Counted from the first letter of the whole stretch, positions 7,211 through 52,635 are shown. The stretch is DNA of 62,860 bases, filler included, from a bacterium (GCA_030615855.1; 5 parts of 5 records of this genome joined end to end with filler, not necessarily neighbours in it); one strand, 5' to 3'. Numbers and translations: made by a program. Notes: generated by a model not told the origin, from the sequence alone.

Positions 7211-7516
7211 TCACAGATATTCACAGATTGTTTACAGATAGACACAGATAACAGATGAAATTCGAAATTCTAATATCGAAAGCCCAATGCGCTTTGCTTG
7301 CATTGGAGAGAGTATAAATTTTAAACTCTGACTAAACAATGTCTAAATTCAAATCTCAAAATTCTAAACTGGGAAATCTTTTGTTTTGGTCATTTGGACT
7401 TTAAATATTTGGATTTGTTTCGGATTTAGGATTTCGTGCTTAGGATTTTAAAATCCAGCTGCTACTAAATATCTGTGATCTGTGAGAATCTGTCTTGAAT
7501 CTGTGGCCATCTGTGT
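7211..7516. repeat. Nested inverted tandem arrays between rpsD and rpoA
   Basis: Outer (cacagat)n...(atctgtg)n, inner (aaattct)n...(ggattt)n, plus an internal hairpin element. Confidence 0.85.
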
Positions 7517-7517
7517 A

Positions 7518-8147
7518 TTAACGAGAGTAGTATTCTACAATGAGCTGTTCTTGGATGGGGAGAGCAATCTCTTCCTTCTTTGGTAATCTCACTACCTTCC
7601 CTTTGAGGTTCTCCTGGTCTATCTCAAGCCAGGGAACTTTCTCTCTATCCTGGGAAAGCTTCATAGCCTCTCTTATTCCTACTATCTCTCTACTCTTGGT
7701 CCTGAGAGAGATCTCGTCCCCCACTTTGCAGGAATAGGAAGGGATGTTTACCTTCCGGCCGTTGACTAAGAAGTGACCATGACGCACCAATTGGCGGGCA
7801 CTGGCCCTGGTGAGAGAAAAACTCAGTCTGAAGACGATATTATCGAGTCTTTTTTCCAGAAGCAAGAGGAGATTCTCTCCGGTCATCCCTTTAGCCCTCT
7901 TGGCCTCTGCGAAGTATTTTCTAAACTGCTTTTCCAATACCCCATAGATCTTCTTTACCTTCTGCTTCTCTCTCAATCGCAGGCCATAGTTTGATATCTT
8001 TAGGCGCCTGCTCTTTCCGTGCTCCCCTGGCCTATAGTCCTTCCTAACCAGAGCGCATTTTTCGTTATAGCATCTCTTTCCTTTCAAAAATAGCTTCATC
8101 CTCTCTTGACGACATAGCTTACAACTCGAACCAATCAACCTCGCCAT
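7518..8147 (-). CDS. rpsD: 30S ribosomal protein S4
   Basis: LREKQKVK, RLDNIVFR and ARQLVRHGH motifs. Confidence 0.98.
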   Translation of the reverse strand: MARLIGSSCKLCRQERMKLFLKGKRCYNEKCALVRKDYRPGEHGKSRRLKISNYGLRLREKQKVKKIYGVLEKQFRKYFAEAKRAKGMTGENLLLLLEKRLDNIVFRLSFSLTRASARQLVRHGHFLVNGRKVNIPSYSCKVGDEISLRTKSREIVGIREAMKLSQDREKVPWLEIDQENLKGKVVRLPKKEEIALPIQEQLIVEYYSR

Positions 8148-8524
8148 TAAACCCTCCTTCTCTTCCTGGCACGGCAGCCATTGTGGGGAATGGGAGTGAC
8201 ATCCTTAATTGCGGTAATCACCAGTCCTACCGCCTGGAGGGAGCGGATGGCCGTCTCCCTTCCCGAACCTGGTCCTTTGACATAGACCGCCACTTCCTTC
8301 AAACCTTTCTCCATGGCTTTCTTTGCCGAGTTCTCAGCTATTAGCCCAGCAGCAAAAGGAGTAGACTTCCTAGTTCCCTTAAACCCCAGACTACCTGCAG
8401 ATGCCCAAGAGATGACATTTCCCTGAGTATCAGTAATGGTAACGATGGTATTATTGAAAGTAGCCTGGATATGGGCAATCCCTTTCTCTACCCCTCTCTT
8501 TTGGGTTTTCTTCTCCTGAATCAC
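8147..8524 (-). CDS. rpsK: 30S ribosomal protein S11
   Basis: [26 protein letters not shown]. Confidence 0.98.
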
Positions 8525-8928
8525 TTCTTCCTCTCCTCTCTCAGGGTCATTCTCTTCGTTTTCTCCCTAACAACGCCCACTGTCTTGCGTGGCCCCTTCC
8601 TTGTCCGAGCATTGGAGTGTGTCCTCTGCCCTCTCACCGGTAGGCCCTTCCTATGCCTCAGGCCCCGATAGCTCCCGATCTCTATGAGCCTCTTAATATT
8701 CTGGGCAACCTCGGTCCTCAGATCTCCCTCTACCCTATGTTCCTTGCTGACCACAGCGTTCAGCTTTCCTACCTCCTCCTCTGTCAGATCCTTCACCCTG
8801 GTATTTGGATGGACATTGGCAGTTGATAGAATCTTGTTGGCTAAGGTTCTTCCTACGCCATAGATATAGGTAAGGGCGATCTCTATCCTCTTATCCCGCG
8901 GTAGATCAACTCCTGCTACTCTTGCCAT
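8521..8928 (-). CDS. rpsM: 30S ribosomal protein S13
   Basis: [27 protein letters not shown]. Confidence 0.98.
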
Positions 8929-8941
8929 ACATTTCTCCTTT

Positions 8942-9057
8942 CAAACGCTGATACTCAACGCACTTCGTTTGCCTTGAGGCTTATCCGCTGATCTTTTTAT
9001 CTGCGCTAATCTGCGTCCTTTTATTTTTTCTCCTTGCTATCTGCGATAATCTGCGTA
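8942..9057. repeat. Inverted (cgctgat)/(atctgcg) array
   Basis: cgctgat twice on the left, atctgcg four times on the right; shorter copy at 14816-14854. Confidence 0.75.
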
Positions 9058-9171
9058 TTAGCCCTGGCGCTGCTTATGTCTTGGGTTACGGCATATGACC
9101 ATGACTACCCCTCTTCTTTTTATTATCTTACAGCTCTTGCATATTCGCTTAACAGAACTACGAACCTTCAT
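9058..9171 (-). CDS. rpmJ: 50S ribosomal protein L36
   Basis: Manual translation [37 protein letters not shown]; below the ORF-track cutoff. Confidence 0.97.
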
Positions 9172-9234
9172 TCCAACCTCGCTTACGCTCGGTTCGTTTA
9201 CCGTGAACGGTTAACGGTTAATCGTAAACCATCA

Positions 9235-9456
9235 TTACTTATGTCTATAAGTAATCCTTCCCCTGGTCAGGTCATAGGGAGAGAGCTCGACCGTCACCTT
9301 GTCTCCGGGCAGGATCTTGATATAGTACATTCTCATCTTACCCGAGACATGGGCAAGGATCTTATGCCCGCCTTCAAGCTCTACCCGAAACATGGCATTG
9401 GGCAGGGTTTCAATCACCGTACCTTCTACAACAACCGGCTCTTCCTTCTTAACCAT
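9235..9456 (-). CDS. infA: Translation initiation factor IF-1
   Basis: [17 protein letters not shown] and [18 protein letters not shown]; start trimmed to MVKKEEP. Confidence 0.97.
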
Positions 9457-9471
9457 CTTCACTCCACTCAG

Positions 9472-9559
9472 ATTGAACAATGAACAAGTAACATTGAACA
9501 ATGAACAATTTTTCCAGCCTCACTTTTCACTTCTTACTTTTTACTTGCTACTTGCTACT
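9472..9559. repeat. Heptamer arrays (tgaacaa)n and (tacttgc)n
   Basis: Visible 7-nt periodicity between map and infA. Confidence 0.75.
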
Positions 9560-10305
9560 TATAATGCAGTAAGTATCCAGGGCCCCTTCCTCGTTATTGC
9601 TACAGTATGTTCAAACTGAGCAGAGAGAGACCTATCTGAAGTAACTACCGTCCAGTTATCTCTTTTGACCTTCACCCTGAAGTCGCCGGCATTCACCATG
9701 GGCTCGATGGCTAAGACCATCCCCTCCTTCAATCTCGGCCCCCTCCCTGGAGGACCGAAGTGGGGAACTGGAGGATCCTCGTGCATCTTTTGACCGAGGC
9801 CATGGCCCACGTAATCCCGGACCACAGAGTATCCCCTTCCCTCAACATAGGATTGTATGGCATGGGAGATATCGCTTAATCTATTTCCAATGACCGTCTT
9901 CTTTATTCCTTTATATAGTGCCTCTTCCGTTACTTCCAATAATTCCTTTACCTGGGAAGAGATCTCTCCTACGGGATAGGTCACTGCATAGTCCCCACAG
10001 TAGCCATTCAACCTCACTCCAATATCGATCCCAATAATATCCCCGTTAGATAGTCTCCTTTTGCCCGGGATACCGTGAACTACTTCTTCGTTGATGGCGG
10101 TGCAGATATGGGCGGGAAAGCCATGATAACCCAGAAAGATGCTCTGAGCATGCTTCTTTTTTAATAAAGAAGCAACCAATTCATCCAGTTCTTTTGTAGT
10201 TATTCCTGGTCGAAGGTGCTGCTCGACGAGAGCGTGGGCCTCTGAGACCAGACGGCCGGCCTCCCTCATAAGCAGAAGCTCTTCTTCTGACTTCAGGATG
10301 ATCAT
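9559..10305 (-). CDS. map: Methionine aminopeptidase type I
   Basis: NEEVVHGIP, GHGLG..MHEDP, AIEPM and SAQFEHT motifs. Confidence 0.97.
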   Translation of the reverse strand: MIILKSEEELLLMREAGRLVSEAHALVEQHLRPGITTKELDELVASLLKKKHAQSIFLGYHGFPAHICTAINEEVVHGIPGKRRLSNGDIIGIDIGVRLNGYCGDYAVTYPVGEISSQVKELLEVTEEALYKGIKKTVIGNRLSDISHAIQSYVEGRGYSVVRDYVGHGLGQKMHEDPPVPHFGPPGRGPRLKEGMVLAIEPMVNAGDFRVKVKRDNWTVVTSDRSLSAQFEHTVAITRKGPWILTAL

Positions 10306-10928
10306 CTTACGCTTCCTAAAAGATTCTTAGTAACCTCTTCTTTGCTTCTCCCACCATCGATGATAATCAAGAGTCCTTTCTTCCTATAATACTTAATTAA
10401 GGGTTGAGTCTCTTCTCTATAGACTTCTAACCTCTTTAGGATGGCCTCTTTTTTATCATCCTCCCGAATGATTAACTCTCCCCCACACCTATCGCATATC
10501 CTCTCTCTCTTGGGAGGAAGGTAGATAATGTGGTACAGGGCCCCACATCCCTTACAGGTCCTTCTCCCAGATAGCCTCTCAATGGCTACCTCATCCTCTA
10601 CTTTTAGATTAATGACCTTATCTATATTGGATATCTTCTCCAAAGCCTCTGCCTGAGGTATGGTCCGGGGAAAGCCATCAAATAAGAACCCCTTCTTACA
10701 ATCCTCTCTCTTTATCCTCTCTTTGATTAGGTCTATGATTAGATCATCGGGAACGAGATGGCCCTTATCCATGTACTCCTTTGCCTTGAGCCCCAGGGGA
10801 GTTCTATCTTCTGAGGCCTGGCGCAGTATATCCCCGGTTGAGATATGGGGGATATTCAGTTCCTCGGCTAGGATCTTGGCCTGAGTCCCCTTCCCTGCTC
10901 CAGGAAGACCGAGCAAAATAATCCTCAC
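10302..10928 (-). CDS. adk: Adenylate kinase (zinc lid)
   Basis: GLPGAGKGTQ, HISTGD and DGFPRT motifs; CxxC pairs in the lid. Confidence 0.97.
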   Translation of the reverse strand: MRIILLGLPGAGKGTQAKILAEELNIPHISTGDILRQASEDRTPLGLKAKEYMDKGHLVPDDLIIDLIKERIKREDCKKGFLFDGFPRTIPQAEALEKISNIDKVINLKVEDEVAIERLSGRRTCKGCGALYHIIYLPPKRERICDRCGGELIIREDDKKEAILKRLEVYREETQPLIKYYRKKGLLIIIDGGRSKEEVTKNLLGSVR

Positions 10929-10945
10929 TCTTAACTCCTACGGAT

Positions 10946-11208
10946 TACGTCAAACGGTTGCCCTTCACTTCATTCAGGATACCTCGCAGGAGTGAAGTAT
11001 CCCGAGCTAATGGCGAGGGGCGGTTGCGAGGCTCGTATTGAATGATACGTCGCAATATCAAAAATCAAAATGTAAAAATTAAAATGATCCGTCTGAAACG
11101 GACAAAATACAAAATTTTAAATTTTAATTTGTAATTTTAATATTTAATTCTTAATACTTGATTTCTCAGCGTAGACGAAACGAGCAGCGTAATTGATAAA
11201 CGAATGAC
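10946..11208. repeat. Composite element: conserved frame enclosing inverted heptamer arrays
   Basis: tacgtcaaacggttgc...gagcagcgtaa..cgaatgac frame shared with 35803-35980; inner (tcaaaaa)/(ttttaat) arrays. Confidence 0.75.
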
Positions 11209-11216
11209 GATCTTTT

Positions 11217-12539
11217 TTAGAACCTGGCCTTTATCTTCCCCTTCTTTATGAAGCCTTCGTAGTGGCGCATGAGTAGGTGATTCTCAATCTGCTTCACAGT
11301 ATCTAAGGCTACCCCCACCACGATGAGCATCCCGGTCCCCCCATAGAAGCCAGCCAGAAGAGCCGAGACTCCCAGTCTGGTATTGACCACGTCTGGAAAG
11401 AGGGCGATGGCCGCCAGGGCAACGGCTCCCGCCAAGGTAATCCTAGAGAGGGTGCGCTCGATATATTCCGAGGTTGATCTTCCCGGCCTTATCCCGGGGA
11501 TGAAGCCCCCGTACCTCTTCATATTATCTGCTAAGTCCAGGGGGTTGAAGATCATGGCGGTATAGAAATAACAGAAGAAGATGATCAAGATAGCATAGAG
11601 GATGGAATAGAGGAGATGTCCTGGGGAAAGCCATACCCCAATCCCCTCCATAAACTCCAGCCTGGTGAAGGTAGCGATGGTGGCCGGGAACATGAGAATG
11701 GAGGAGGCGAATATTATGGGGATGACTCCTGGGGTATTGACCCTTATGGGGATAAAGGTGCTCTGTCCCCCATACATCCTCCTTCCCACGATTCTTTTAG
11801 CATACTGAACGGGAATCTTTCTCTGGCCCTCAGTGATGATCACTATTCCGGCAATGACTAGAGCCATCAAAGCCAGCATGAAGGCCAGTTTCACAGGGGA
11901 GAGCACCCCACTTTTCAGTTGCGCTGCGGTCTGGATCCCTGCCTGGGGGAGACGGGCTACGATCCCGGCAAATATGATGAGTGAGATTCCGTTCCCAATT
12001 CCCCTCTCCGTAATCTGCTCTCCCAGCCACATGATGAAGATGGTGCCGGCGGTCATGGTTAAGACAGTGATTAAAAGGAAAGAGGGGCCGGGTGAGGGGA
12101 CAACGGATATGCCTGTCGTCTCGGTCTTTAGATGCTGGAGCCAGACGGCGAGGCCTGAACCCTGGATGAGGCAGATGAAGACCGTGGCATATCTGGTATA
12201 CTGGTTGATCTTTCTCCTTCCTGCCTCTCCCTCCTTCTGCAGCCTTTCAAGCTGCGGGATGGTGGGGATGAGTAAGGAGAAGATGATGGAGGCCGTGATA
12301 TAGGGCATGATGCCCAGGGCGAAGACCGTGGCCCTCCCCAATGCTCCTCCAGTAAACATGTCGAAGTAGGTGAGGAGGGTTCCCTTGGCCTCAGCGAAGA
12401 ACTGGCCGAGAGCAGCTCCATCGATCCCTGGGGTTGGGATGTGCCCCCCTATCCGATAGACAACGAGTATGGCAAAGGTGAATAGGATCCTTTTCTTTAA
12501 TTCTGGTATCTTGAAGGCATCCCTAAAGGCTCTTAACAC
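11217..12539 (-). CDS. secY: Preprotein translocase subunit SecY
   Basis: [34 protein letters not shown] and [10 protein letters not shown] motifs. Confidence 0.98.
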
Positions 12540-12976
12540 TTGATCACCTCTATCTCTCCCCCAGCCTCCTTTATTCTTTCTATTGCTTTCTGAGAGAAGG
12601 CATGAGCACTCACCTTCAGTCCTTTGGTCAACTTCCCCTCACCCAGGATCTTTATCCTATCCCTCTTTCTCGCCAGGCCCTTCTTCACTAAGAAGTCTGG
12701 AGTAATTTTACTCCCTTCCTTGAACCTCTCTAAATCCCTAACATTCAGGATAGCGTATTCTTTCTTAAAGATGTTGACGAAGCCCCTCTTGGGGAGCCTC
12801 CGGGAGAGGGGCATCTGTCCTCCCTCAAAGCCCGGTCTCACCCCGCCTCCGCTGCGCGCCTTCTGTCCCTTATGGCCCCGGGTGGAGGTCTTCCCATGGC
12901 CACTAGATCTACCCCTTCCCACCCTCTTGGGTCTTTTTTTACTCCCTCTAGGTACTTTTAACTGGCTTAACTTCAT
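12533..12976 (-). CDS. rplO: 50S ribosomal protein L15
   Basis: [30 protein letters not shown]. Confidence 0.98.
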
Positions 12977-13142
12977 CTATCCTCACCATATAAGATACCC
13001 TAGCTATCATTCCCCTTATCTGGGGATTATCTTCTTTAATTACTGAGGAGCCTATCCTCTTCAAGCCCAGGGCCTTGATGGTCCTTCTGTGCCTCTCTTT
13101 CTTTCCGGCCAGGCTCCTGATCAATGTTATCCTTATCTTCAC
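12948..13142 (-). CDS. rpmD: 50S ribosomal protein L30
   Basis: GTG start, [34 protein letters not shown]; position in the spc operon. Confidence 0.93.
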
Positions 13143-13247
13143 CCCGCTCCTTTTGTTATTCACCCCGCACTTTTCCGCTACGAAAGGATACTTCAAATGT
13201 AAAAGGTGCGGGGTTCACTCTCGCTCCTCTTTGAGGGGTGGGGTTCA
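13138..13247. mobile_element. Two nested TIR elements at the rpsE/rpmD junction
   Basis: Outer ttcaccccgctcc...aggggtggggttca; inner ttcaccccgcactttt...aaaaggtgcggggttca (13159-13217). Confidence 0.7.
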
Positions 13248-13769
13248 AAGGATCTCCTCCTCTTTCTTACCCCGCCGGCGGGCAACTTCTTTAAGCTCCT
13301 TCAGCTGGGAGAGGGCAAGGAGGGTGGCCTTTACCATATTGTGGGGATTGGAGCTTCCTAAAGATTTGGTCAGAATATCCTTTATCCCACAGGCCTCGAT
13401 CACCGCTCGCACCGGCCCTCCAGCAATCACCCCAGTGCCCAACGAAGCAGGACGAAGGAGAACTTTTCCCGCCCCGAACTTTCCTATGATTCTATGGGTA
13501 ATGGTCCTTCCCTTCATGGGAACAGTGATCATATTCTTCTCCGCTCTATCATGGGCCTTCCTAATGGCCTCTGGAACATCATGGGCCTTGCCCTTTGCTA
13601 CCCCCACCTTTCCCTTTCCATCGCCCACTACTACTAAGGCAGAGAAGGAGAACCTCTTTCCTCCTTTAACCACCTTAGAGACCCGGTTGATGGAGACCAC
13701 CCTCTCAATCAGCTCCTCTTCTTTCTTCCCTTCGATCCTCTTTTCTAATTTCTTCCTCACCCGTTCCAT
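13245..13769 (-). CDS. rpsE: 30S ribosomal protein S5
   Basis: [32 protein letters not shown]. Confidence 0.98.
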
Positions 13770-13820
13770 TATTCTATATCCCTCTTCTTAGTATTCGCGA
13801 TGATTCGCGTCTTTGCGTCT

Positions 13821-14183
13821 TCAGAACTTAAGTCCCCCTTTACGTGCTCCTTCTGCTAAGGCCTTCACCCTTCCATGGTAGAGATATCCTCCTCGATCAA
13901 AAGCCACCTTTTCTATTTTCTTGGCAAGTGCCTTCTGAGCAAGAAGTTCTCCCACGGCATAAGCACTCTTTATGTTCCCACCCCTTTTAATCCTATCTCT
14001 TATCTCTTTAGAGAGGCTAGAGGCAGCAACCAATGTCTCACCCTTAAGGTCATCTATGATCTGGGCGTAGATGTGGTTGAGGCTACGAAAGACAACCAGG
14101 CGTGGCCTCTTGAGAGTGCCCAAGATCCTCTTTCTTACTCTCTTATGCCTTCTCTCTCTGGCCAGTTCTTTTTTTACAACCAT
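13821..14183 (-). CDS. rplR: 50S ribosomal protein L18
   Basis: [29 protein letters not shown]. Confidence 0.98.
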
Positions 14184-14202
14184 ACCCTACTCTCTCTAAA
14201 AA

Positions 14203-14246
14203 AATTCGCGTCAATTCGTGTCTTTTAATTCGCGTTGATTCGCGTC
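14203..14246. repeat. (attcgcgt) tandem array
   Basis: Same unit at 13793-13820 and 50372-50434, each next to a stop codon. Confidence 0.7.
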
Positions 14247-14801
14247 TTAAGTTCCTACCGGTCCAGTGACCGCTGCCTTCCCTACCTTGCGTTTTATATA
14301 CTCCCCTTTATACCTGATCCCCTTTCCCTTATAGGGTTCGGGTGGCTTGAGGGCCCGGATGTTAGAGGTGACCTCACCAACAAGCCCCTTATCCCCGCCC
14401 GAGACAATAATCTGGGTTCCCTTCTCCACCTTTATCCCTATTCCCTTGGGAATAGGGAACTCTACGGGATGAGAGAGACCCAAGGATAGCATGAGCTTAT
14501 CACCCTTTAGATTAGCCTTATAGCCCACCCCGATAATCTCCAGGGATTTAGAAAAGCCTTCGTTCACCCCTTTGATCATATTGGCCAGGAGGGAGCGGGA
14601 GAGGCCGTGGAGAGATTTATGGGGTTTTGCACTGGAAGGCCTCTTAATTATGATCTCCTTCTCTTTTACCTCTACCTTTATTTCAGAAGGGATCTTCCTT
14701 GTTAACTTTCCTTTCGGGCCCTCCACAGTAAAGGTATTACCTTCTATCTGGACTTTCACCCCTTCTGGTACAATAATGGGTCTTTCTCCAACTCTCGACA
14801 T
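14247..14801 (-). CDS. rplF: 50S ribosomal protein L6
   Basis: MSRVGERPI, PPEPYKGKGIRY. Confidence 0.98.
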   Translation of the reverse strand: MSRVGERPIIVPEGVKVQIEGNTFTVEGPKGKLTRKIPSEIKVEVKEKEIIIKRPSSAKPHKSLHGLSRSLLANMIKGVNEGFSKSLEIIGVGYKANLKGDKLMLSLGLSHPVEFPIPKGIGIKVEKGTQIIVSGGDKGLVGEVTSNIRALKPPEPYKGKGIRYKGEYIKRKVGKAAVTGPVGT

Positions 14802-14854
14802 CTCGCTTTCCCTTCAAACGCTGATTACCGCTGATAATCTGCGGTCATCTGCGT

Positions 14855-15253
14855 TTACCAAATGTGGCAGATAACCTCTCCCCCAATCCTTCTCTTCCTA
14901 GCCTCCTTATCCGTCATTATTCCCTGAGAAGTGGAGAGTATGGCTACGCCCAATCCGCCCAAGACCCTGGGAACCTCACTCGCCTTGGCGTAGTGTTTCA
15001 GGCTGGGCTTGCTAATCCTCTTTATACCACTAATTACCTTTTCCTTCTTTGAGGTGTACTTGAGATAGATCCTCAGTATCCCCTGCCTTCTATCCGAGAT
15101 CACCCTAAAGTTCTTAATATAACCTTCCTCTTTTAGGATTCTGGCGATCTCCTGTTTCATCTTTGAAGAAGGGATATCCACCCTATCCTTCTTTGCCTGA
15201 TTGGCATTTCTGATCCTGGTGAGCATCTCAGCAATTGGGTCAGTTACCGTCAT
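14855..15253 (-). CDS. rpsH: 30S ribosomal protein S8
   Basis: [25 protein letters not shown]. Confidence 0.98.
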
Positions 15254-15280
15254 TTTTAAAAACCTCGCTTTACTCGGTTT

Positions 15281-15346
15281 TAGTTCGGAGCACGCTCGGC
15301 TTTGCCTCGCTTGAGTTCGGTGTTTTTTGTCTCCGAACTCCGAACT
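15281..15346. repeat. Inverted (agttcgg)/(ccgaact) array with internal insert
   Basis: Second copy at 32920-33010. Confidence 0.75.
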
Positions 15347-15369
15347 GAGATATCTGCAGTCATCTGTGG

Positions 15370-15555
15370 TTACCAGCTAGACTTGGTCACTCCCGGGATT
15401 TGGCCTTCACTGGCCAACTTCCTGAAACATATCCTGCAGATCTTGAACTTCCTCATATAGCCCCTTCTCCTCCCACAGATCTGACATCTATTATATGTCC
15501 TTGTCTTATACTTTGGCTTTCTCTTCTGCTTTGCTATCCAGGACTTTTTAGCCAT
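15370..15555 (-). CDS. rpsZ: 30S ribosomal protein S14, zinc-binding type Z
   Basis: RCQICGR...[16 protein letters not shown]. Confidence 0.96.
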
Positions 15556-16106
15556 CATTCACTCCTCTCGCGTTTAAGGGGGAAGCCGAAGGCGGAGAGG
15601 AGTTCCCTTGCCTCCTCATTCGATTCCGCAGTAGTTACAATAGTAATATCCATGCCATGGATGAGGGGTACCTTATCATAGTCTATCTCTGGAAATACGA
15701 TCTGTTCCGTTATCCCTATGGTATAATTCCCCTTCCCATCGAAGGAGTCAGGAGAGAGACCCTTAAAGTCCCTTATCCTGGGTAGGGCGACATTTATGAG
15801 CCTATCCAGGAATTCGTACATCCTCTCTCTTCTCAGAGTCACCTTACAGCCGATCTTCACTCCTTTCCTCAGTTTGAAGGAGGCGATGGCTCTCCTTGCC
15901 TTGGTGATGAGCGGTCTTTGGCCCGTAATCTGGGCCAGTTCGTCTACTGCGGCATCCAATAATTTGGAATCGCTTAGGGCCTTTCCCATACCAACGTTGA
16001 TCACCATCTTCTCTATCCTGGGAACCTGATAGAGGTTGGTGTAATTGAACCTCTTCATCAGAAGGGGCACAATCTCTTTTTGATATCTCTCCTTCAATCT
16101 AGCCAT
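15555..16106 (-). CDS. rplE: 50S ribosomal protein L5
   Basis: [16 protein letters not shown] and [10 protein letters not shown]; start trimmed to MARLKE. Confidence 0.98.
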
Positions 16107-16199
16107 AAATCCTCGTTTACTGTTGAGCGGCACGTTTTACTTGCCCCGCTGATGAATAACTATTATTCAATTTGCCCGCTCCTCACCTTGTTCGTCGCT

Positions 16200-16251
16200 G
16201 TTTACCGTTTACGGTAAAAAATATTATACCGTAAACCGTTAACCGTAAACC
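16200..16251. repeat. Inverted (gtttacc)/(ccgtaaa) heptamer array
   Basis: Same unit family at 9191-9231, 22067-22089 and 29656-29696. Confidence 0.75.
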
Positions 16252-16267
16252 TTTGCTAACTAATATC

Positions 16268-16594
16268 TCATTCCTTATCTATGGTCTCCCCGCATTTCTT
16301 ACAGACCCTCAATTTCTTTCCCTTCTCCACTACTTTATAATATCCTATCCTGGTAGGCTGATTACATCTGGGGCAGATGAGCATAACGTTTGAGATGGCT
16401 AAAGGAGCCTCCTTCTCTATGATCCCAGAGGGCTTTCCTTCGCCCCTTGGCTTAGTATGCCTCTTAATGAAGTTAAGGCCTTGAACAAGCACCCTCTCCT
16501 CCTTGGGAAAGAGGCCCAGGACCTTCCCTTCCTTCCTCCGCTCTTTCCCAGCGATGATCCTTACCTTGTCTCCCTTTCTTATCTTAAAACCCAT
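16268..16594 (-). CDS. rplX: 50S ribosomal protein L24
   Basis: IRKGDKVRIIAGK, EAPLAISNVM. Confidence 0.97.
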   Translation of the reverse strand: MGFKIRKGDKVRIIAGKERRKEGKVLGLFPKEERVLVQGLNFIKRHTKPRGEGKPSGIIEKEAPLAISNVMLICPRCNQPTRIGYYKVVEKGKKLRVCKKCGETIDKE

Positions 16595-16614
16595 TGTTCA
16601 CTCCGTTCGCATTT

Positions 16615-16980
16615 TCAGACGACCTCTGGAGCAAGAGAGATTAGTTTAGCAAACTTCTCCTTCAGCTCACTGGCTACTGGCCCGAATATTCTGGTCCCCA
16701 GTAGCTCCCCCTGGGCAGTGACCAAAACGCAGGCGTTCTCATCAAACTTTATATAGGAGCCATTCTCTCTTCTGGCCTCCTTCTTCATTCGCACGATAAC
16801 CGCCCGTACCACAGACCCCTTCTTTATCTCACTGGTGGGAATGGCCTCCTTGACGCTAGCCACGATAATATCCCCTAGCCGGCCATATCTTCTCTTGCTC
16901 CCACCCAGGACCCTGATACACATGACCCTTCTCACCCCAGTGTTATCCGCAACCTCTAGGACAGTTCTCTCTTGAATCAT
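16615..16980 (-). CDS. rplN: 50S ribosomal protein L14
   Basis: [23 protein letters not shown] and SLAPEV; start trimmed. Confidence 0.98.
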
Positions 16981-17000
16981 CTCTCCTCGCTTTGCTCGGA

Positions 17001-17262
17001 AGTTATCAGTTAATAGTAAAAATAAGATCCAATAACCAATGACCAATAACCAAACAATAACCAATGACCAATAACCAATCACCAAACTGTTTTGTCCGAC
17101 CACCTATGGTGGACGGATTGAATTTGGATATTGGAATTTGTTTGACCAATGCTTAATTATTTATGCTCTCTCCAATGCCAGCGAAGCGCATTGGGTATTG
17201 TATCTTGTATCTTGGTGTTTAATCACTAGAATTTCGGAACTATAAACTGGTTACTGGTTACT
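17001..17262. repeat. Nested inverted heptamer arrays with two hairpin inserts
   Basis: (ccaatra)n left arm, (ttgga..)/(atcttgt) right arm, outer agtt../ctggtta units. Confidence 0.85.
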
Positions 17263-17277
17263 TTAAAATATACTTTC

Positions 17278-17520
17278 TTACTTGGCCTTTTCTAATATCT
17301 TGGCTACCCGCCATCTCTTATCCTTGGAGAAGGGTCGGGCCTCGACAATCTCTACCCTATCCCCAATCCGGCACTCATTCTTCGGGTCATGAGCCTTGAA
17401 GCGCTTGGCGCGCTTTATTACCTTACCATAGAGGGGGTGGCGAAATGTTCTTTCCACTCGGACCACTACCGTCTTATCCATCCTGTTACTAACTACTCTT
17501 CCCACTCTCACCTTTCTCAC
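17278..17520 (-). CDS. rpsQ: 30S ribosomal protein S17
   Basis: [20 protein letters not shown] and RPFSKDKRW. Confidence 0.97.
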
Positions 17521-17717
17521 TTGCTCTCTCCTCTTCTTTCCTGTAGGATGGTTTTGGCCTTTGCCATCTCCCTGCGCCGTTGGCGAATGGTCAAGGGATT
17601 GGCAAGTCCTCCGGTGGACTTCTTCGCCTTGAGGTTGAATAGCTCCTCTTTTAGAGAGGAGATCTTTACCTCAAGCTCTGGGATGCTCAATTCTCTTAAA
17701 TCCTCTTTCTTGGGCAT
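17517..17717 (-). CDS. rpmC: 50S ribosomal protein L29
   Basis: LKEELFNLK...[14 protein letters not shown]; operon position. Confidence 0.93.
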
Positions 17718-17718
17718 A

Positions 17719-18126
17719 TTATCTTCTCTGAACGAACTTCGTCTTCAGGGGTAGCTTACGGGCAGCGCGCTCCATGGCCTCCTGGGCAATTGATTCTGAT
17801 ACCCCAGCCAGTTCGAATAGCATTCTGCCCGGCTTGACCACCGCCACCCAGATCTCAGGGGCTCCCTTCCCCTTTCCCATCCTGGTTTCTAAAGGCTTCT
17901 TGGTCACTGGTTTATCGGGAAAGATCCTGACCCAGATCTTTCCTCCTCTTTTGATAAAATGGGTGAGGGCCACCCTCGCTGCCTCTATCTGGCGGGTGGT
18001 TACCCAGGAGGGCTCCAGGGCCTGGAGGCCATACTCTCCGAAGCTCACCCTAGAGCCCCGAAAGGCCTTCCCTCTCATCCTGCCTCTCTGCTGCTTTCTA
18101 TGTTTTACTCTCTTAGGCATTAACAT
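17719..18126 (-). CDS. rplP: 50S ribosomal protein L16
   Basis: [24 protein letters not shown]. Confidence 0.98.
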
Positions 18127-18132
18127 AATTAC

Positions 18133-18771
18133 TCACTCTTCGTTTTCTTTGGGCTTCCCTTCCTTGAATATCCAAACCTTTACCCCAATCCTTCCATATG
18201 TCGTGTGGGCCTCACTGAACCCATAATCGATATCTGCCCTCAGGGTATGTAAGGGAACTCTTCCTTTTCTATACCACTCTGTTCTAGCAATCTCCGCTCC
18301 CCCCAGGCGACCACTGCAGGCGATCTTTATTCCCTTGGCTCCCGCCTCCAGGGCATTCTCCACCATCCTCTTCATGGCCCTTCGGAAGCCGCGCCTTTTC
18401 TCAAGTTGGAGGGCAACGCTCTCTGCTACTAACTGGGCATCTAGGAAGGGGGTTTCTATCTCCTGGATGTTGAGATAGATCTCCTTACTCGTTATTTTAG
18501 AGAGGTCCTCCTTTAATCTCTCCACCTCCGCCCCTTTTCTTCCGATGACGATCCCAGGGCGAGCAGCGAAGATATTGATTCTCAGGCGCTTTCCTGCCCG
18601 GTAGATCTCTATCTTAGAGATGCCGGCGCGATGCAGCCTCTCCTTTATGAACTTGCGAATCCGAAAGTCTTCCAACAGTAGGTCGCCGTAATCCTTTTTG
18701 GCAAACCACTTGCTCTTCCAGTCCTTTACGATCCCGATTCGGAAGCTAAGGGGATGAACCTTCTGTCCCAT
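18133..18771 (-). CDS. rpsC: 30S ribosomal protein S3
   Basis: [21 protein letters not shown]; start trimmed. Confidence 0.98.
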
Positions 18772-18793
18772 AATAACCCTCGCTACGCTCTGT

Positions 18794-18882
18794 AAAATCA
18801 AATATTAAAATTTAAATATTAAAATTCAAAAAGTTTCGTAATTTTGATTTGTCACTTTGATTTTTGATTTTTAATTTTTGAT
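18794..18882. repeat. Inverted AT-rich heptamer array overlapping the rplV 3' end
   Basis: (aaatatt/aaaattt)n...(tttgatt)n. Confidence 0.75.
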
Positions 18883-19214
18883 ATCCCTTCTCCCTCTTCC
18901 CGCTCTTTCAGCACGATAGTGATATGGCTTGTTCTCTTCCTTATCCTGGTCGCCCTTCCAAAGGCACGTGGCCTCCACCTGGGTAGGGTGGGACCCTGAT
19001 CACAGGTCGCCTGGGCCACATAGAGGTTCTCCTTTACCTTGGCATTGGCCAGGGCGGAGCGCAGGAGCTTCTCCAAGATAGGAGATACCCTTCCTGGAGT
19101 AAACTTTAGGATGCTTAGAGCCTCTTCTGTCTTCTTGCCTCTGATGAGGTCCAGAACCCTCCTCGCCTTGCGGGGAGCGATCCTGATAAATCGTGTCTTT
19201 GCCTTGGCTTCCAT
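18852..19214 (-). CDS. rplV: 50S ribosomal protein L22
   Basis: [18 protein letters not shown] and KRTSHITIV. Confidence 0.98.
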
Positions 19215-19221
19215 TCCTGCC

Positions 19222-19506
19222 TCACTTAATGGCGGTTATTCTCTCCGTGTGGGCCCCATGGGCCCGGAATATCCTGGTGGGTGAGAACTCACCCAGCTTC
19301 TGGCCCACCATCTCCTCTGTGATGTAGACTGGGATGAACCTCTTTCCATTATAGACCGCTAAGGTATGGCCTACCATCTGGGGGAATATGGTTGAGGAAC
19401 GAGACCAGGTCTTGATCACGGCCTTCTTTCCTGTCTTATTCATGGCCTCAATCTTTTTCAATAACTTAGGATCGATAAAAGGTCCTTTCTTTATTGACCT
19501 ACCCAT
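19222..19506 (-). CDS. rpsS: 30S ribosomal protein S19
   Basis: [17 protein letters not shown]. Confidence 0.98.
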
Positions 19507-20327
19507 TACTTCCTCCTCTTGATGATTAATCTATCAGAGGGCTTCTTCTTCCTTGTCTTATATCCCTTAGTGGGCTTTCCCCAGGGAGTTACCGGATGTC
19601 TCCCTCCAGAGCTCTTCCCCTCCCCACCACCATGGGGATGGTCAACAGGGTTCATGGCCACTCCCCTTACCTTGGGACGATAGCCAAGATAACGGGACCT
19701 TCCGGCCTTCCCCAAAGAAATGCGCCCCCAGTCGACATTCCCCACCTGTCCGATGGTCGCCAGGCAGTCCAGAAGGACCTTTCTTATCTCCCCTGAAGAT
19801 AGCCTCAGGTGGGCATACCTCCCCTCCTTGGCCAAGACTTGGGCAAAGGTGCCTGCTCCCCGTGCCATCTGTCCGCCTCTGCCTTTGGTGAGCTCAATGT
19901 TATGGATGGTGGTCCCTAAGGGGATATGCTTGAGAGGCAAAGAGTTCCCAATCCTGATATCAACATCCTCACCAGATATTACCTCATCCCCCACCTTCAA
20001 GCCCTGAGGAGCAATGATATATCTCTTCTCCCCATCCCTATAAGATAGAAGGGCGATGTAGGAGGTGCGATTGGGATCGTACTCAATGGAGACCACCCTG
20101 GCTGGGATATGGAACTTATTTCTCTTAAAGTCAATGACCCGATATCTTCTCTTATGACCTCCTCCCCTCCAGCGGATGGTAATCCTTCCCTCCCTGCCTC
20201 TACCTGCCCTCTCCTTTAAGGGCCTGAGGAGGGGTTTGTGGGGTTTGACCCCGGTGAGCTCTACAAAGGTTGCCCCAGTTGTCGATCTTCTCGATGGGGT
20301 AGTCGGCCTATATTTTTTGATAGCCAT
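19506..20327 (-). CDS. rplB: 50S ribosomal protein L2
   Basis: [24 protein letters not shown]; start trimmed to MAIKKY. Confidence 0.98.
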
Positions 20328-20354
20328 GAATTTGCTCCATTCCCAAAAATCGTA

Positions 20355-20478
20355 ATCAATCAGCAATTATCAATGCAAAATTAGCAATGAAAAAGTAAAA
20401 ATTCTTTTTTTATACTGTATTGTTTAATAGTCCAATCGCCTTAAATTTTGCATTTTTCATTTTGTATTTTAAATTGTT
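20355..20478. repeat. Inverted heptamer array
   Basis: (caatgca/aaattag) left arm, (ttttgca/ttttcat) right arm; related to 52583-52612. Confidence 0.65.
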
Positions 20479-20485
20479 ATTTATC

Positions 20486-22408: not shown

Positions 22409-22427
22409 CTTATACCTCGCTACGCTC

Positions 22428-39420: not shown

Positions 39421-39424
39421 ATAA

Positions 39425-39457
39425 AAAAGGGGCGGCTCATTTAGAGCCGCCCCTTTT
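39425..39457. terminator. Bidirectional intrinsic terminator between lptG and ahcY
   Basis: aaaaggggcggctc-attta-gagccgcccctttt. Confidence 0.85.
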
Positions 39458-39471
39458 CACTTTTGGGATAT

Positions 39472-44654: not shown

Positions 44655-44754
44655 CCCGCCCCTCCTTCTCTAAAATTATCAATGTATTTTTCCTATTTTT
44701 CATGTATTCTCACTTTTCCCATTAAACTAAATCGTATCGAGGGGCGGGATTCAT
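44650..44754. mobile_element. TIR element at the ptsI / pgi-pmi junction
   Basis: ttcatcccgcccctc...gaggggcgggattcat. Confidence 0.7.
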
Positions 44755-44757
44755 CAT

Positions 44758-47401: not shown

Positions 47402-47477
47402 GTTTACCAGTTGACCAGTTAACCAGTTTAAAACCAGCAAACCAGCGAACTGGCAAACAGGCAAACCGGCTAACAGG
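47402..47477. repeat. Inverted octamer array (accagtt)/(ggcaaac)
   Basis: 8-nt periodicity between lptB and hpf. Confidence 0.75.
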
Positions 47478-47483
47478 AAAACT

Positions 47484-48209: not shown

Positions 48210-48366
48210 CCCACCCCTCCTTTTGTATTCAAAACAGCAACCACGGATTTCACAGATTTCCACGGATTAGTATTCTTTTTAAAAATCTGTTTAATCCGTC
48301 CAATCCGTGGTTTTATTAAAGTCTTCGAAGCTACAAGATTATCAATTCCGTGAGGGGCGGGGTTCA
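48205..48366. mobile_element. TIR element at the lptA/lptB junction with a nested array
   Basis: ttcaccccacccctc...gaggggcggggttca; inner (cacggat)/(atccgtg). Confidence 0.7.
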
Positions 48367-49559: not shown

Positions 49560-49844
49560 AATGCCTAATAATTAATAACCAAACTGAGAATCTCCAATTT
49601 CCAATTCCTAATTTCCAATAAAATTTTAAATGTCAAATGCCAAAAAAAGAAATAAGTAGATCAGAGAATCAGAATATCAGTAGGAAGGGTATCAGAAGAC
49701 CAGGGTATCAGGCTTTAAAGAAAGATTTTCTGATGTTCTGATATACTGCATTCAGGGCATCGCGAAGAATTTAGCCAGCTTGTCTGGCGTCTATCCTGAT
49801 ATACTTTTTGAATTGTTAGAAATTGGATATTAGATATTAGAAAT
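49560..49844. repeat. Nested inverted arrays
   Basis: Outer (tttccaa)/(ttagata) heptamers, inner (atcaga)/(ctgat) units. Confidence 0.75.
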
Positions 49845-50357
49845 TTAATAAGTTTTTTTAGCCTTAAGAATTATATCTATCGCTTCTCTCACCGCTCCCC
49901 TTCCTCCAGAAGCCCGAGTAACATAGTGAACGATGTCTTTGATCTCTTTTACTCCATTTGCTGGAGCGAGGGCCAGGCCTGCCTTTCTTAAGGGAGGGAT
50001 GTCCCCTAGATCATCGCCGATATAGGCCACTTCCTCATTCTTTAAACCATATTTCTTTAAGAACTTATGATAAACTTCTATCTTAAGAGAGACCCCCTGA
50101 TAGACTTCGCTTATTTTTAGCTCCTCTGCCCTTCTCTCCACTACTTTAGATTTTCGACCACTGACCAATGCTACGATCAGTCCTTTTTGTAAAGCAAGAT
50201 TGATTCCCTGGCCATCCTGGACATAAAAATTCTTTAATTCCTCTCCCTTGCTCCCTAAAATAATGCGACCATCTGTCAGTACTCCATCAACATCCATAAT
50301 GAGCATCTTTATTCTTCTTGCTCTTTCCCGTATCTTTTGCGATATTTTCTTCTCCAT
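49845..50357 (-). CDS. kdsC: KDO-8-phosphate phosphatase
   Basis: MDVDGVLTDG, YIGDDLGD and GGRGAVRE. Confidence 0.95.
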   Translation of the reverse strand: MEKKISQKIRERARRIKMLIMDVDGVLTDGRIILGSKGEELKNFYVQDGQGINLALQKGLIVALVSGRKSKVVERRAEELKISEVYQGVSLKIEVYHKFLKKYGLKNEEVAYIGDDLGDIPPLRKAGLALAPANGVKEIKDIVHYVTRASGGRGAVREAIDIILKAKKTY

Positions 50358-50433
50358 ATTTTATTCCTAATATTCGCGTAGATTCGCGTTTTGTTTATTG
50401 CGTTTTTGTCTAACAGTTCGCGTTTATTCGCGT

Positions 50434-51408
50434 TTAGGTGATTCCTTCTTTCAAGAGGTCCCTTTCATCAACGATGCCTATGGGACAATTATCCTCATCC
50501 ACTACTGGTATGTTATCAAACCCCTTCTCCTCCAAGATCCCCACTGCTTCCGTGGCCAGTTTATCCCTGGTAATAGTAGTGGGCTTCTTGGTCATAACGA
50601 GCGAGATCTTCTTTTCTAAAAGATCCTTATCCTTCTGCAATTTCCTTCGCAAATCTCCATCAGTAAAGAAACCTACTAACCTTCCTTCTCTATTAATAAC
50701 GCTTACCGCCCCCAGTCTGGTGGAGGTCATGACGAGCAGAGCCTCTTTCACTGTCTTATCCTCATCTATCAAGGGATTCTCTTCTTCCTTTCTCATAATA
50801 TCCTCAACCCGCAATAATAATTTCTTCCCCAAGGGTCCACCAGGATGGAGCAGAGCAAAGTCACTCTCCTTAAATCCTTTTCTACTCAGGAGAGAGATGG
50901 CTAGGGCATCGCCTAAAGCTAACATGGCGGTAGTTGAGGCGGTGGGTACCAAGTTGAAGGGACAAGCCTCTCTCTTTACTTTGACATTCAATACCACATC
51001 AGACTCCTTGGCTAAAGAGGAATTCGGATTCCCAGTCAAGGTAATGAGCTTTAGTCTTAATCTCTTGACCAAGGGTAGAATTCTTTTTATCTCTTCCGTC
51101 TCCCCGCTATAGGATAAGGCGAGGATGATATCCTCTTTCATGACCATCCCCATATCCCCATGCATCCCCTCTACCGGGTGGACGAAGAAGGCGCTTGTTC
51201 CGGTACTCGATAGGGTGCTGGCGATCTTTCTCCCAACGAGCCCGCTCTTTCCCATGCCCGTGACGATCACTCTTCCCTTACACCTACTGACTAGATCTAC
51301 CGCTTGAGAGAAGTTATCATCCAATTGCTTCATCAAATTCTTAATGGCCTCTGACTCTATCTCCAATACCTTCTTGGCATCCTCAATACTCATCCTACTC
51401 TCCTTCAT
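50434..51408 (-). CDS. kdsD: Arabinose-5-phosphate isomerase (SIS plus CBS)
   Basis: GMGKSG, HGDMG, EACP.NLVPTASTT and HPGG. Confidence 0.95.
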   Translation of the reverse strand: MKESRMSIEDAKKVLEIESEAIKNLMKQLDDNFSQAVDLVSRCKGRVIVTGMGKSGLVGRKIASTLSSTGTSAFFVHPVEGMHGDMGMVMKEDIILALSYSGETEEIKRILPLVKRLRLKLITLTGNPNSSLAKESDVVLNVKVKREACPFNLVPTASTTAMLALGDALAISLLSRKGFKESDFALLHPGGPLGKKLLLRVEDIMRKEEENPLIDEDKTVKEALLVMTSTRLGAVSVINREGRLVGFFTDGDLRRKLQKDKDLLEKKISLVMTKKPTTITRDKLATEAVGILEEKGFDNIPVVDEDNCPIGIVDERDLLKEGIT

Positions 51409-51411
51409 TTT

Positions 51412-51560
51412 ACATTGAACATTTTTGCTAACAGTTAATATTGGTTAATATTGGTTGCTTTCAAATCGTCCCTCGTCCCTCATCCTTCACCAATCCACCC
51501 AATCCAACTAATCCAACTAATTTACTACCCACTTTCCCACTTTCTCACTTTCTCACTTTC
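51412..51560. repeat. Mixed short tandem arrays
   Basis: (aatccaact) and (actttccc) units; same units at 52403-52635. Confidence 0.7.
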
Positions 51561-52374
51561 TCACTATCCTGTCTATTTCTTTCACCTCTTTTAAGAGTTT
51601 TGCTACTTCCTCTAGCCTCATCATGTTGGGACCATCGGATAACGCCTTATCTGGATCGGGATGGGCCTCAAGGAATAAGGCATCTACCCCACAGGCCACC
51701 GCTGCCCGAGCAAGATAGGGGATATAATCCCTATTTCCACCAGTTGCTATCTCCATTCCCCCGGGAAGTTGAACGCTATGTGTGGCATCGAAGACCACGG
51801 GATATCCCAAGGAACGCATGATGGGCAGGGATTTCATATCAACCACTAAATTATTGTAGCCGAAGGTGGTTCCCCTCTCTGTTAATAAAATATTCCTATT
51901 CCCTACGGATTCAATCTTCTCAACGACATTCTTCACATCCCAGGGGGCTAAGAACTGACCCTTCTTGACATTCACCGGCTTTCCTGCCTTGGCCACTGCC
52001 AGAACGAAGTCTGTCTGGCGGCATAAGAAAGCCGGGATCTGTAAGATATCTGCTATCTTACTGACCGCGGGCACCTGTTCTCTCTCATGGACATCGATTA
52101 AGAGGGAAATGTTCAACTCTTTTTTTATCTTTTCTAAGATTTCAAGACCCTTTTTTGGGCCTGGGCCACGGTAGGACTTTATCGATGTCCGATTCGCCTT
52201 ATCATAGGAGGATTTAAAGATAAAGGGCATTCTTAATTCGCTGGTAATCTCTTTTAGTCTCCTTGCCGTTTGAAAGGTCTGCTCCCCTGTTTCGATAACA
52301 CAGGGCCCAGCGATCAAAACCAGTGGATTATTTCCACCAATCCTGATATTCCTTACCCTTACTTCCTTAACCAT
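51553..52374 (-). CDS. kdsA: KDO-8-phosphate synthase
   Basis: IAGPCVIE, SYDKANRTS, QIPAFLCRQT and DATHSVQ. Confidence 0.97.
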   Translation of the reverse strand: MVKEVRVRNIRIGGNNPLVLIAGPCVIETGEQTFQTARRLKEITSELRMPFIFKSSYDKANRTSIKSYRGPGPKKGLEILEKIKKELNISLLIDVHEREQVPAVSKIADILQIPAFLCRQTDFVLAVAKAGKPVNVKKGQFLAPWDVKNVVEKIESVGNRNILLTERGTTFGYNNLVVDMKSLPIMRSLGYPVVFDATHSVQLPGGMEIATGGNRDYIPYLARAAVACGVDALFLEAHPDPDKALSDGPNMMRLEEVAKLLKEVKEIDRIVRK

Positions 52375-52402
52375 TTTTCCCCTCTCTTTCTCACTTCCAT
52401 TT

Positions 52403-52635
52403 TACATTGAGCATTGAACAACGAACAATGAAATCTGAAACCTGTAGTGAAATTAGAAATCTGAAATCAGTATTCCGTTTTTACTACCAATCCACCTAAT
52501 CCACCTAATCTACTATCTACTTTCTAACTTTCTAACTTTCCCACCTGCCCATCTGTTCACTTTCCCACTTTCCCACTTTCACATTTTGCATTGCTAATTT
52601 TGCATTTTTCATTGATCACCGATTACCGATTACTG
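52403..52635. repeat. Mosaic of 7-9-mer arrays between kdsB and kdsA
   Basis: tgaacaa, aatccacct, actttccc, ttttgca and ccgatta units. Confidence 0.75.

Follow-up and report, generated by a model that had tools for sequence, protein, structure and literature searches.

Short-unit tandem arrays at gene junctions of a metagenome-assembled bacterial genome are probably the arms of small hairpin cassettes

The closest described relatives of the elements reported here are intervening sequences (IVSs) of 23S rRNA. As set out in PMC4990558, the ORF-bearing IVSs of Coxiella burnetii, Leptospira and other bacteria carry an open reading frame (ORF) for the S23p protein and a 28-bp terminal stem, are excised by RNase III in vitro, contain tandem GACAGAT heptamers, the number of which varies among strains, and are held to be selfish elements. 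Here, we describe a 62,860-nt stretch of DNA (the window) from genome GCA_030615855.1 (G000), in which many gaps between genes, including those of the ribosomal S10, spc and alpha operons, are occupied by tandem arrays of short units. These arrays probably represent the arms of small insertion cassettes of hairpin type. Arms can be paired, nested or stand alone, and complete cassettes carry an ORF for either a four-helix-bundle (4HB) or a GxxExxY protein.

The elements resemble the rRNA IVSs in that terminal inverted repeats form a long stem (predicted here with z scores, relative to shuffled sequences, down to -7.0) and the heptamers are of one type, GACAGAT in IVSs and CACAGAT/GACAGAT here. 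A PF05635/TIGR02436 protein is encoded in the loop of IVSs and, in G000, in nine matches elsewhere in the genome, but in none of the window copies. Whereas IVSs are inserted in a helix of the 23S (or 16S) rRNA gene, the window elements lie between protein-coding or tRNA genes. Most of the elements described here have no ORF, and their arms are longer, have many different units and are often nested. Moreover, a second cargo family, the GxxExxY nuclease, features the same design, and excision by RNase III has been demonstrated for IVSs only. A preliminary description of the window had considered the cassette system undescribed; the term needs to be qualified, as the ORF-bearing IVS is a published relative (PMC4990558). 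A literature search combining the family names with repeats, in which supplements were not covered, returned no paper describing the cassette layout or linking both families to repeat arms. The present analysis adds matches to both flanks of cargo cassettes, a comparison of individual junctions among relatives and a test of arm mismatches.

Heptamer repeats are known from other bacteria, and the short tandemly repeated repetitive (STRR) sequences of cyanobacteria are simple-sequence repeats of this type. The TAACTGA repeats of Beggiatoaceae consist of one word and are nearly all direct, with 1 inverted set among 170 (PMC4679880), and the heptamer elements of Geobacter metallireducens are described as direct repeats of single words (PMC2700814). 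Like the present arrays, all of these are tandem intergenic 7-nt units, often found near start codons, among them those of ribosomal protein genes. The present arrays differ in comprising 340 distinct units (among 794 genome-wide arrays of period 7 or 8), in their frequent inverted pairing and in forming dispersed multi-unit composites. In addition, the accessible texts of the two reports mention no associated gene (PMC4679880, PMC2700814).

The window consists of five contigs of one metagenome-assembled genome chained by N/linker blocks. As contig joins (N blocks around a short linker) are present at 22651-22750, 27547-27646, 52859-52958 and 60378-60477, it is not one continuous stretch. G000 has a size of 1.375 Mb in 45 contigs, a G+C content of approximately 45% and a completeness of 93.6%. 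It was compared with the only five genomes of the same family (G001 to G005) in the genome collection; all other relatives therein were labelled as sharing the domain. Within the window, we tested 37 N-free gaps of at least 25 nt between Pfam-checked genes. Genome-wide, sequences outside ORFs of at least 100 aa, corresponding to 14.3% of the genome, were taken as non-coding.

A complete cassette would consist of a 5' array, a small ORF and an array of the reverse complement. Judging from sequence, the ORF encodes either a putative 4HB protein (TIGR02436; 23S_rRNA_IVP, PF05635, in Pfam) or a putative GxxExxY nuclease of the PD-(D/E)XK type (TIGR04256; PDDEXK_3, PF13366). Nine matches to TIGR02436 and six to TIGR04256 were found in G000, none of them in the window, where all copies are gene-less. 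Cargo-bearing versions exist, with exactly the two families that the preliminary description had named for other bacteria. The alignment of the putative GxxExxY nuclease retains a D...ExK motif. Sequence searches of the PDB gave no match for GxxExxY and one weak match, 2GSC, for the 4HB protein.

Inverted arrays flank the cargo genes and abut the neighbouring genes. Using an arm inverted-repeat score of at least 24 as the cut-off, and a mirror control, 11 of the 13 full-length cargo copies of G000 were scored as positive (0 in the control); both neighbouring genes are on the same strand in 11 of the 13, according to a crude ORF call. In the six genomes of the family, the same score was reached by 28/32 4HB loci (mirror, 1) and 13/20 GxxExxY loci (mirror, 0). 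The association extends further. Among 81 sampled genomes, TIGR02436 was found in 37 and TIGR04256 in 24, and the loci returned, mostly from outside the family, lie between inverted arrays in 26/28 (4HB; mirror, 0) and 17/25 (GxxExxY; mirror, 2) cases.

Comparisons among cassettes indicate that arms and cargo diverge jointly. Arm units are mostly shared when the cargo proteins are at least 81% identical, and differ at 60-70% identity. GxxExxY arms conform to one pattern, C[AG]C[AG][AG]A[GT] (CRCRRAK; for instance, CACAGAG, CACAAAG, CACGAAG, CGCAGAT and CACGGAT), across distant genomes. In the six family genomes, this pattern occurs at least twice upstream of 13/20 GxxExxY loci vs 4/32 4HB loci, and in at least three of these four the CACAGAT units form an outer arm enclosing other inner arms. 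The arms of 4HB cassettes use many different words. Cassettes are also copied whole to new gene junctions. For instance, G000 has a pair of GxxExxY copies, one on contig C30 and one on C45, that encode 99% identical proteins, and their DNA homology, approximately 455 nt in length, ends at the outer ends of the arms; no target-site duplication was seen at the ends of this duplicated cassette. Similarly, two 4HB copies in G002 are 99% identical and have the same arms.

When the genome was scanned for genes lying between inverted repeats, core genes such as ackA and groES ranked high; they were rejected as cargo because a complete hairpin of one family is present in both neighbouring gaps. One 4HB copy of G000 (C35:26755-27069) has an in-frame TAA, and is therefore a decaying cargo gene. 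Near-identical long palindromes, possibly operators, are present on either side of each of two PaaX-like genes, the middle domain of which is Cas2-like (C30:6056-6847 and C35:135096-135854).

Gene-less versions are far more common than gene-bearing ones. Three window gaps match the sequences on both sides of the ORF in cargo cassettes of relatives, and lack the ORF. At 7194-7517, the inner arms and flanks match the 4HB cassettes G002:C46 and G005:C35 on either side of the ORF, and the former also has the same outer CACAGAT/ATCTGTG arms. The element at 35782-36021 aligns with the 4HB cassette G004:C160 along 85 nt at one side and along 44 + 31 nt at the other; a 447-nt stretch of that cassette, including the ORF, is represented by 20 nt in the window. 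At 14802-14854, both flanks of the GxxExxY cassette G001:C17 are matched. BLAST (E <= 1e-4) connects 9 of the 37 window gaps to at least one cargo cassette flank. The three gaps with matches on both flanks support the idea that the arrays are empty sites or derivatives of a cassette system.

Cassettes are rapidly gained, lost and replaced among close relatives. The rpsD-rpoA gap measures 35, 94, 124, 160, 324 or 383 nt in the six genomes and has four different occupants. G003 has a gap of 35 nt, and the 94-nt gap of G001 contains a hairpin of its own; G002 (124 nt) and G005 (160 nt) carry the AGTTCGG element that is located at rpsN-rpsH in G000; G000 (324 nt) and G004 (383 nt) have common outer arms (approximately 96% identical) and different interiors. 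This pattern of occupancy does not track relatedness. The secY-adk gap is 2 nt in G001, 112 nt in G004 and 288 nt in G000, and rpoA and rplQ overlap in four genomes and are separated by 142-150 nt in two. The infA-rpmJ hairpin has two units per arm in G003 and four in G004, while in G001 a changed unit is accompanied by a matching change in the opposite arm; the G000 element at this junction (9186-9232) is found one junction upstream, between map and infA, in G004. One GxxExxY junction is filled in G000 and G005 and contains other, unrelated elements in G002 and G003.

The rpsH-rplF and rpsN-rpsH cassettes are missing from contigs assembled from other metagenomes. In run X8, which has 120 additional letters at rpoA-rplQ, 4 letters stand in place of the 53-nt rpsH-rplF cassette; in run X4, the rpsN-rpsH gap, 116 nt long in G000, is reduced to 10 different letters. 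Such contigs are short and often stop at gaps, and uncovered parts were excluded as evidence. Presence/absence variation had been named as a check on the cassette reading, and junctions are indeed empty, filled or differently filled in the five relatives and in other metagenomes. In G004 (L039, 678-1156), a 479-nt rpsN-rpsH insertion has an ORF of approximately 150 aa resembling a small membrane protein, and looks like a different kind of cargo at a junction holding a hairpin in G000.

Many elements belong to dispersed families. Self-BLAST of the genome revealed 402 intervals (42.5 kb) with at least three other copies. Family A, a hairpin of approximately 110 nt with ATCAGA/TCTGAT arms, has 24 copies of 79-97% identity in either orientation (11 vs 11), and is often nested within CAGTAAC-type arms. 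Family B has 18 copies, and 14 of 16 are immediately followed by an ORF on the same strand, the function of which varies; the start of the element is similar to the 3' flank of the 4HB cassette G004:C79. Family C has a 55-nt core flanked by CACAGAT, CACGGAT or CGCAGAT units and is present in 19 copies. The family B core (approximately 95 nt, three stems) is nearly always in sense orientation and ends at the ribosome-binding sites of rplE, ispD, truB, rimP, lepA, a dksA-like gene and others; a mobile leader and a structured RNA are both conceivable. Family C sequences at 24590-24640, 7283-7330 and 17147-17192 have a 7-bp stem and fall into two subfamilies of opposite orientation relative to genes.

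Arrays are abundant. Tandem Repeats Finder (TRF) reported 95 rows in the window, and 23 of the 37 gaps contain at least one array of period 6-12, in agreement with the more than 20 gaps, several of them in the S10-spc-alpha operons, originally noted. Genome-wide, 1880 rows were obtained vs 349 in an order-3 Markov shuffle, the excess being evident at period 7 (480 vs 38) and period 8 (347 vs 49). Of 1388 non-redundant arrays, 698 are outside ORFs and 82 straddle an ORF end. The recurring words singled out in the preliminary description (CACAGAT/ATCTGTG, GTTTACC/ACCGTAA, AGTTCGG/CCGAACT, ACCAGTT, ATCAGA/TCTGAT, ATTCGCG and TGAACAA) are all present at the positions given. In contrast, the proposed targeting of highly expressed operons was not upheld: arrays are present in 431 of 732 gaps (59%) across the genome, and the phenomenon is therefore genome-wide and not directed at such operons.

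Cassettes tend to follow the stop codon directly and to leave the ribosome-binding site of the next gene free. The first array starts -15 to +5 nt from the stop codon in 121/339 gaps, so that the claim that arms often start at a stop codon applies to about a third of the gaps but not to the remainder. The last array mostly ends 11-40 nt ahead of the next start (146/339 gaps). These array-end positions were used in place of the distance between the stop codon and the best inverted repeat, a measure dropped as ill-defined because gaps contain several elements. A conserved Shine-Dalgarno motif (AACCGAGCG.AGCGAGG type, sense strand) is present directly after an array and ahead of several start codons (22409-22432, 15254-15278, 9172-9190, 29639-29662 and 23009-23032); elements of this kind may provide the ribosome-binding site.

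According to Pfam, the alpha, spc and S10 ribosomal operons are on the minus strand of the window, from 5728 to 22408, and are followed by rtcB/archease, infC-rpmI-rplT, a tRNA cluster, gap-pgk, lpt and kds genes, among others. rpmJ (L36, 37 aa; 9058-9171, minus strand) sits within what appeared to be a 306-nt infA-rpsM gap, with arrays on either side. An Rfam scan revealed five tRNAs and nothing else. The elements of the window are the following (z, fold score):

7194-7517, minus strand: nested hairpin cassette, rpsD to rpoA; outer arms of five CACAGAT-type (7211-7257) and five ATCTGTG (7471-7517) units
8985-9050, minus strand: direct ATCTGCG / CGCTGAT-type array, rpmJ to rpsM
9186-9232, minus strand: near-palindromic GTTTACC/AACGGTT array, infA to rpmJ; z -2.1
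9474-9560, minus strand: serial direct arrays (TGAACAA x5, TCACTTT x4, TACTTGC x3) with no inverted partner
11060-11156, minus strand: AT-rich arrays in the 288-nt secY-adk gap; one flank matches 4HB cassettes of G002
13785-13820, minus strand: direct ATTCGCG-type array, rplR to rpsE
14203-14248, minus strand: direct AATTCGCGTC array, rplF to rplR; z -0.3; fits the CRCRRAK arm type of GxxExxY, with a one-flank match to the GxxExxY cassette G002:C42
14802-14854, minus strand: short hairpin, (CGCAGAT)2 + (ATCAGCG)2, rpsH to rplF; z -2.9; gene-less GxxExxY counterpart
15281-15369, minus strand: AGTTCGG/CCGAACT element with ATCTGCA/ATCTGTG units, rpsN to rpsH; z -2.8
16110-16254, minus strand: family B element, a GGTTTAC hairpin and a conserved core (about 95 nt) that extends to the ribosome-binding site of rplE
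17029-17262, minus strand: CCAATAA x8, family C core (17147-17192), TTGTATC and ACTGGTT arrays, rpsQ to rplN
18793-18882, minus strand: AT-rich TAAAATT / TTTGATT arrays, rplV to rpsC
20365-20470, minus strand: inverted arrays GCAAAAT ... ATTTTGC, rplW to rplB; z -1.5
22429-22498, minus strand: GTTTGCCG and AACTGGCC arrays, upstream of rpsJ
24573-24704, minus strand: CACAGAT units around a family C core, then ATCCGTG-type units, archease to rtcB; z -4.1
29357-29422, minus strand: GTGATCG x3 and GTTCACA x4 arrays, rpmI to rplT
29656-29696, minus strand: CGTTAAC-type near-palindromic array, infC to rpmI; z -2.6
32913-33026, minus strand: AGTTCGG/CCGAACT element between two tRNA genes
34641-34748, minus strand: 22-nt units and partial complement, gap to pgk; z -3.0
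35782-36021, minus strand: family A ATCAGA/TCTGAT hairpin with outer GGTTGCG arms; z -7.0; gene-less 4HB counterpart
36874-36914, plus strand: direct AAGTAGGA x5 array upstream of lptF
47402-47482, minus strand: ACCAGTT and AAACCAGC arrays, lptB to hpf; z -3.0
48242-48300, minus strand: CACAGAT and ATCCGT units close to the lptB start
49589-49845, minus strand: nested element, AATTTCC ... TTAGAAA outer and ATCAGA ... TCTGAT inner, kdsC to lptC; z -3.5; one-flank match to the 4HB cassette G001:C93
50372-50436, minus strand: direct ATTCGCGT array, kdsD to kdsC; z -1.7
51434-51569, minus strand: four different direct arrays in series; z +0.7
52413-52633, minus strand: numerous serial direct arrays upstream of kdsA

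Two further kinds of repeat were observed in the window. Regions 39087-39471 and 28860-28930 belong to a dispersed repeat family without tandem arrays, which has the strongest predicted fold of the window (z -11.6), and copies of which also flank a cell-division gene on contig C26. A class of inverted repeats with G/C-rich ends (CCCGCACC ... GGTGCGGG type) encloses approximately 100 nt at 61739-61850, 44655-44757 and 13197-13244. In G002 and G003, a similar element occupies the rpoA-rplQ junction, at which run X8 has its 120 additional letters and the two genes overlap in G000.

Among the alternatives to the cassette reading, replication slippage in place survives best, and is itself unlikely. 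The arrays would be ordinary long simple-sequence repeats, similar to cyanobacterial STRR or TAACTGA sequences, and small genes would have inserted into existing hairpins. Slippage would account for the many gaps featuring direct-only arrays of private units, for the variable unit number of the orthologous infA-rpmJ hairpins and for the large repertoire of units. It does not account for composite elements of 100-130 nt, which recur at 18-24 sites with up to 97% identity; independent slippage, already doubted in the preliminary description, is therefore not an explanation for these near-identical sequences. The finding of one element at different junctions in different genomes, the arms that accompany cargo in intragenomic duplicates and the single GxxExxY arm pattern in distant genomes all speak against it as well.

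Inverted pairing exceeds control levels. In a strict test, an array was considered paired when two or more units of its reverse complement were present no further than 300 nt away; this applied to 85 of 660 arrays, vs 15 (reverse-only), 29 (complement-only) and 28 (same-strand) in the controls; a strong inverted repeat is present in 118 of 536 co-directional gaps, vs 33 for the mirror control. Three other approaches were abandoned. Pairing by TRF consensus was too insensitive (28 inverted pairs vs 9.8 with permuted units), a one-mismatch unit scan was too permissive, as controls scored equally, and a search for downstream partners up to 2.5 kb away gave 127 matches vs 97 in the control, the excess being restricted to partners at most 100 nt away.

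Folds with z <= -2 were predicted for 13 of the 23 array-bearing window gaps, one of which is confounded by tRNAs, and not for the other 10. The strongest array stems are those at 7194-7517 (-86.5 kcal/mol, z -6.1) and 35782-36021 (-54.7 kcal/mol, z -7.0). Direct-only gaps (e.g., 14184-14246, 50358-50433 and 51409-51552) fold like shuffles, with z scores from -1.7 to +0.7. The statement that an array is usually followed by its reverse complement is hence too general; the pairing is real and concerns about half of the array-bearing gaps, but is not the rule, as 10 of 23 are direct-only. Likewise, the long mRNA hairpins that had been proposed are predicted by folding for about half of these gaps, but the mismatches described below lend no support to a role at the mRNA level.

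Selection by the host of RNA hairpins, serving as RNase III processing sites or as mRNA stabilisers that uncouple operon genes, with the small genes being incidental, is quite improbable. Mosaic, gene-less hairpin-forming elements that are co-transcribed with operons are known (BOX, Correia/NEMIS and the RPE elements); these are not known to have tandem-array arms or gene-bearing masters of the PF05635/PF13366 families. The predicted stems are strong (z <= -3 in 15 of the 37 gaps, -6 to -7 for the largest), family B has a single orientation in 15 of 16 co-directional contexts and one covarying stem pair (A-U in 7 copies, G-C in 6), and an RNase III gene is present in G000. However, arm mismatches of the type that gives G:U in the sense RNA do not outnumber A:C mismatches, either in gaps (277 vs 307; 210 gaps) or in cassettes (32 vs 34; 32 cassettes). 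Arm complementarity therefore looks strand-symmetric, and we read it as being kept in DNA. The presence of family A in both orientations, and the relatives in which orthologous junctions function without any element, also speak against host selection. Sense folds are more stable than antisense folds in 331 vs 194 gaps; this bias was set aside in favour of the mismatch test because base composition could explain it.

A repetitive extragenic palindrome (REP/REPIN) system moved by a RAYT (Y1 HUH) transposase, or a set of miniature inverted-repeat transposable elements (MITEs) of a classical insertion sequence, is very improbable. As in REP/REPIN-RAYT systems, many short extragenic palindromes occur alongside rare copies with a gene between the repeats, and as in MITEs, three window gaps share ends and sub-terminal sequences with longer, gene-bearing 4HB or GxxExxY cassettes. 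In contrast to these systems, the arms enclose genes of other families, encoding a putative PD-(D/E)XK nuclease or four-helix bundle and not known transposases, Y1_Tnp (PF01797) is not matched in the 93.6%-complete genome, and the duplicated GxxExxY cassette has no target-site duplication. Moreover, the arms are tandem arrays of element-specific words and not one conserved palindrome. The elements also differ from integron cassettes, which have a single 3' attC site, in having arms on both sides of the ORF. Finally, although N linkers join the five contigs that make up the window, and those of relatives tend to stop close to array-rich junctions, the chance that the arrays are assembly or binning artefacts is negligible, as related elements are present in five relatives, the genomes of which were assembled independently, as well as in contigs from four additional runs, which belong to four studies.

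We therefore retain small hairpin insertion cassettes as the probable source of the arrays. By analogy with MITEs or REPINs, the gene-less copies may rely in trans on the cargo proteins, and the putative GxxExxY nuclease may act on its own CRCRRAK-type arms. Complementarity of the arms may be kept at the DNA level, e.g., by fold-back copying or in-hairpin repair plus slippage, and would not be maintained through selection on the mRNA. Long stems transcribed with the operon may be substrates of the host RNase III, a gene for which is present in G000, as are the rRNA elements. Solitary arms, or growth in place, may explain some of the direct-only arrays.

Several observations weigh against the cassette reading. 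Of the 23 array-bearing gaps, 10 fold no better than shuffles, only 9 of 37 window gaps are linked by sequence to a cargo cassette, and many direct-only arrays have no assignment. The genome has 340 distinct 7/8-mer units and just 15 cargo genes, and most arrays therefore have no cognate protein in G000. The 93.6%-complete assembly gave no match to a transposase, a reverse transcriptase (RVT_1) or a Y1 transposase, and no target-site duplication was seen. Collinearity between gene-less and gene-bearing elements would fit loss and capture of the ORF alike. Arm binding by either protein, the nuclease activity of GxxExxY, and transcription and cleavage of the stems are all presumed.

A wider reading is possible, if doubtful: the rRNA IVSs, the excess of intergenic heptamers, PF05635 and PF13366 could all be parts of one undescribed superfamily of minimal selfish cassettes, the cargo of which reads its own arms. 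If so, a pentameric four-helix bundle would bind one unit per subunit, the GxxExxY nuclease would cut CRCRRAK arrays, arms would regenerate by fold-back copying, and movement or homing would take place without a classical transposase. Gene-less descendants would then occupy up to 59% of the gaps of a 1.4-Mb genome, including those of the S10-spc-alpha operons.

The cassettes offer a concrete source of some of the short tandem repeats that populate bacterial intergenic DNA, and their arms provide a candidate substrate, testable at the bench, for PF05635 and PF13366, two very common families of unknown function. In practical terms, the arrays break assemblies, inflate ORF starts and conceal small genes, rpmJ among them. 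The puzzle that rRNA intervening sequences have posed for 35 years is widened to ordinary operons. A streamlined 1.4-Mb genome would thus tolerate selfish hairpins in its most conserved operons, with turnover so fast that members of one genus differ.

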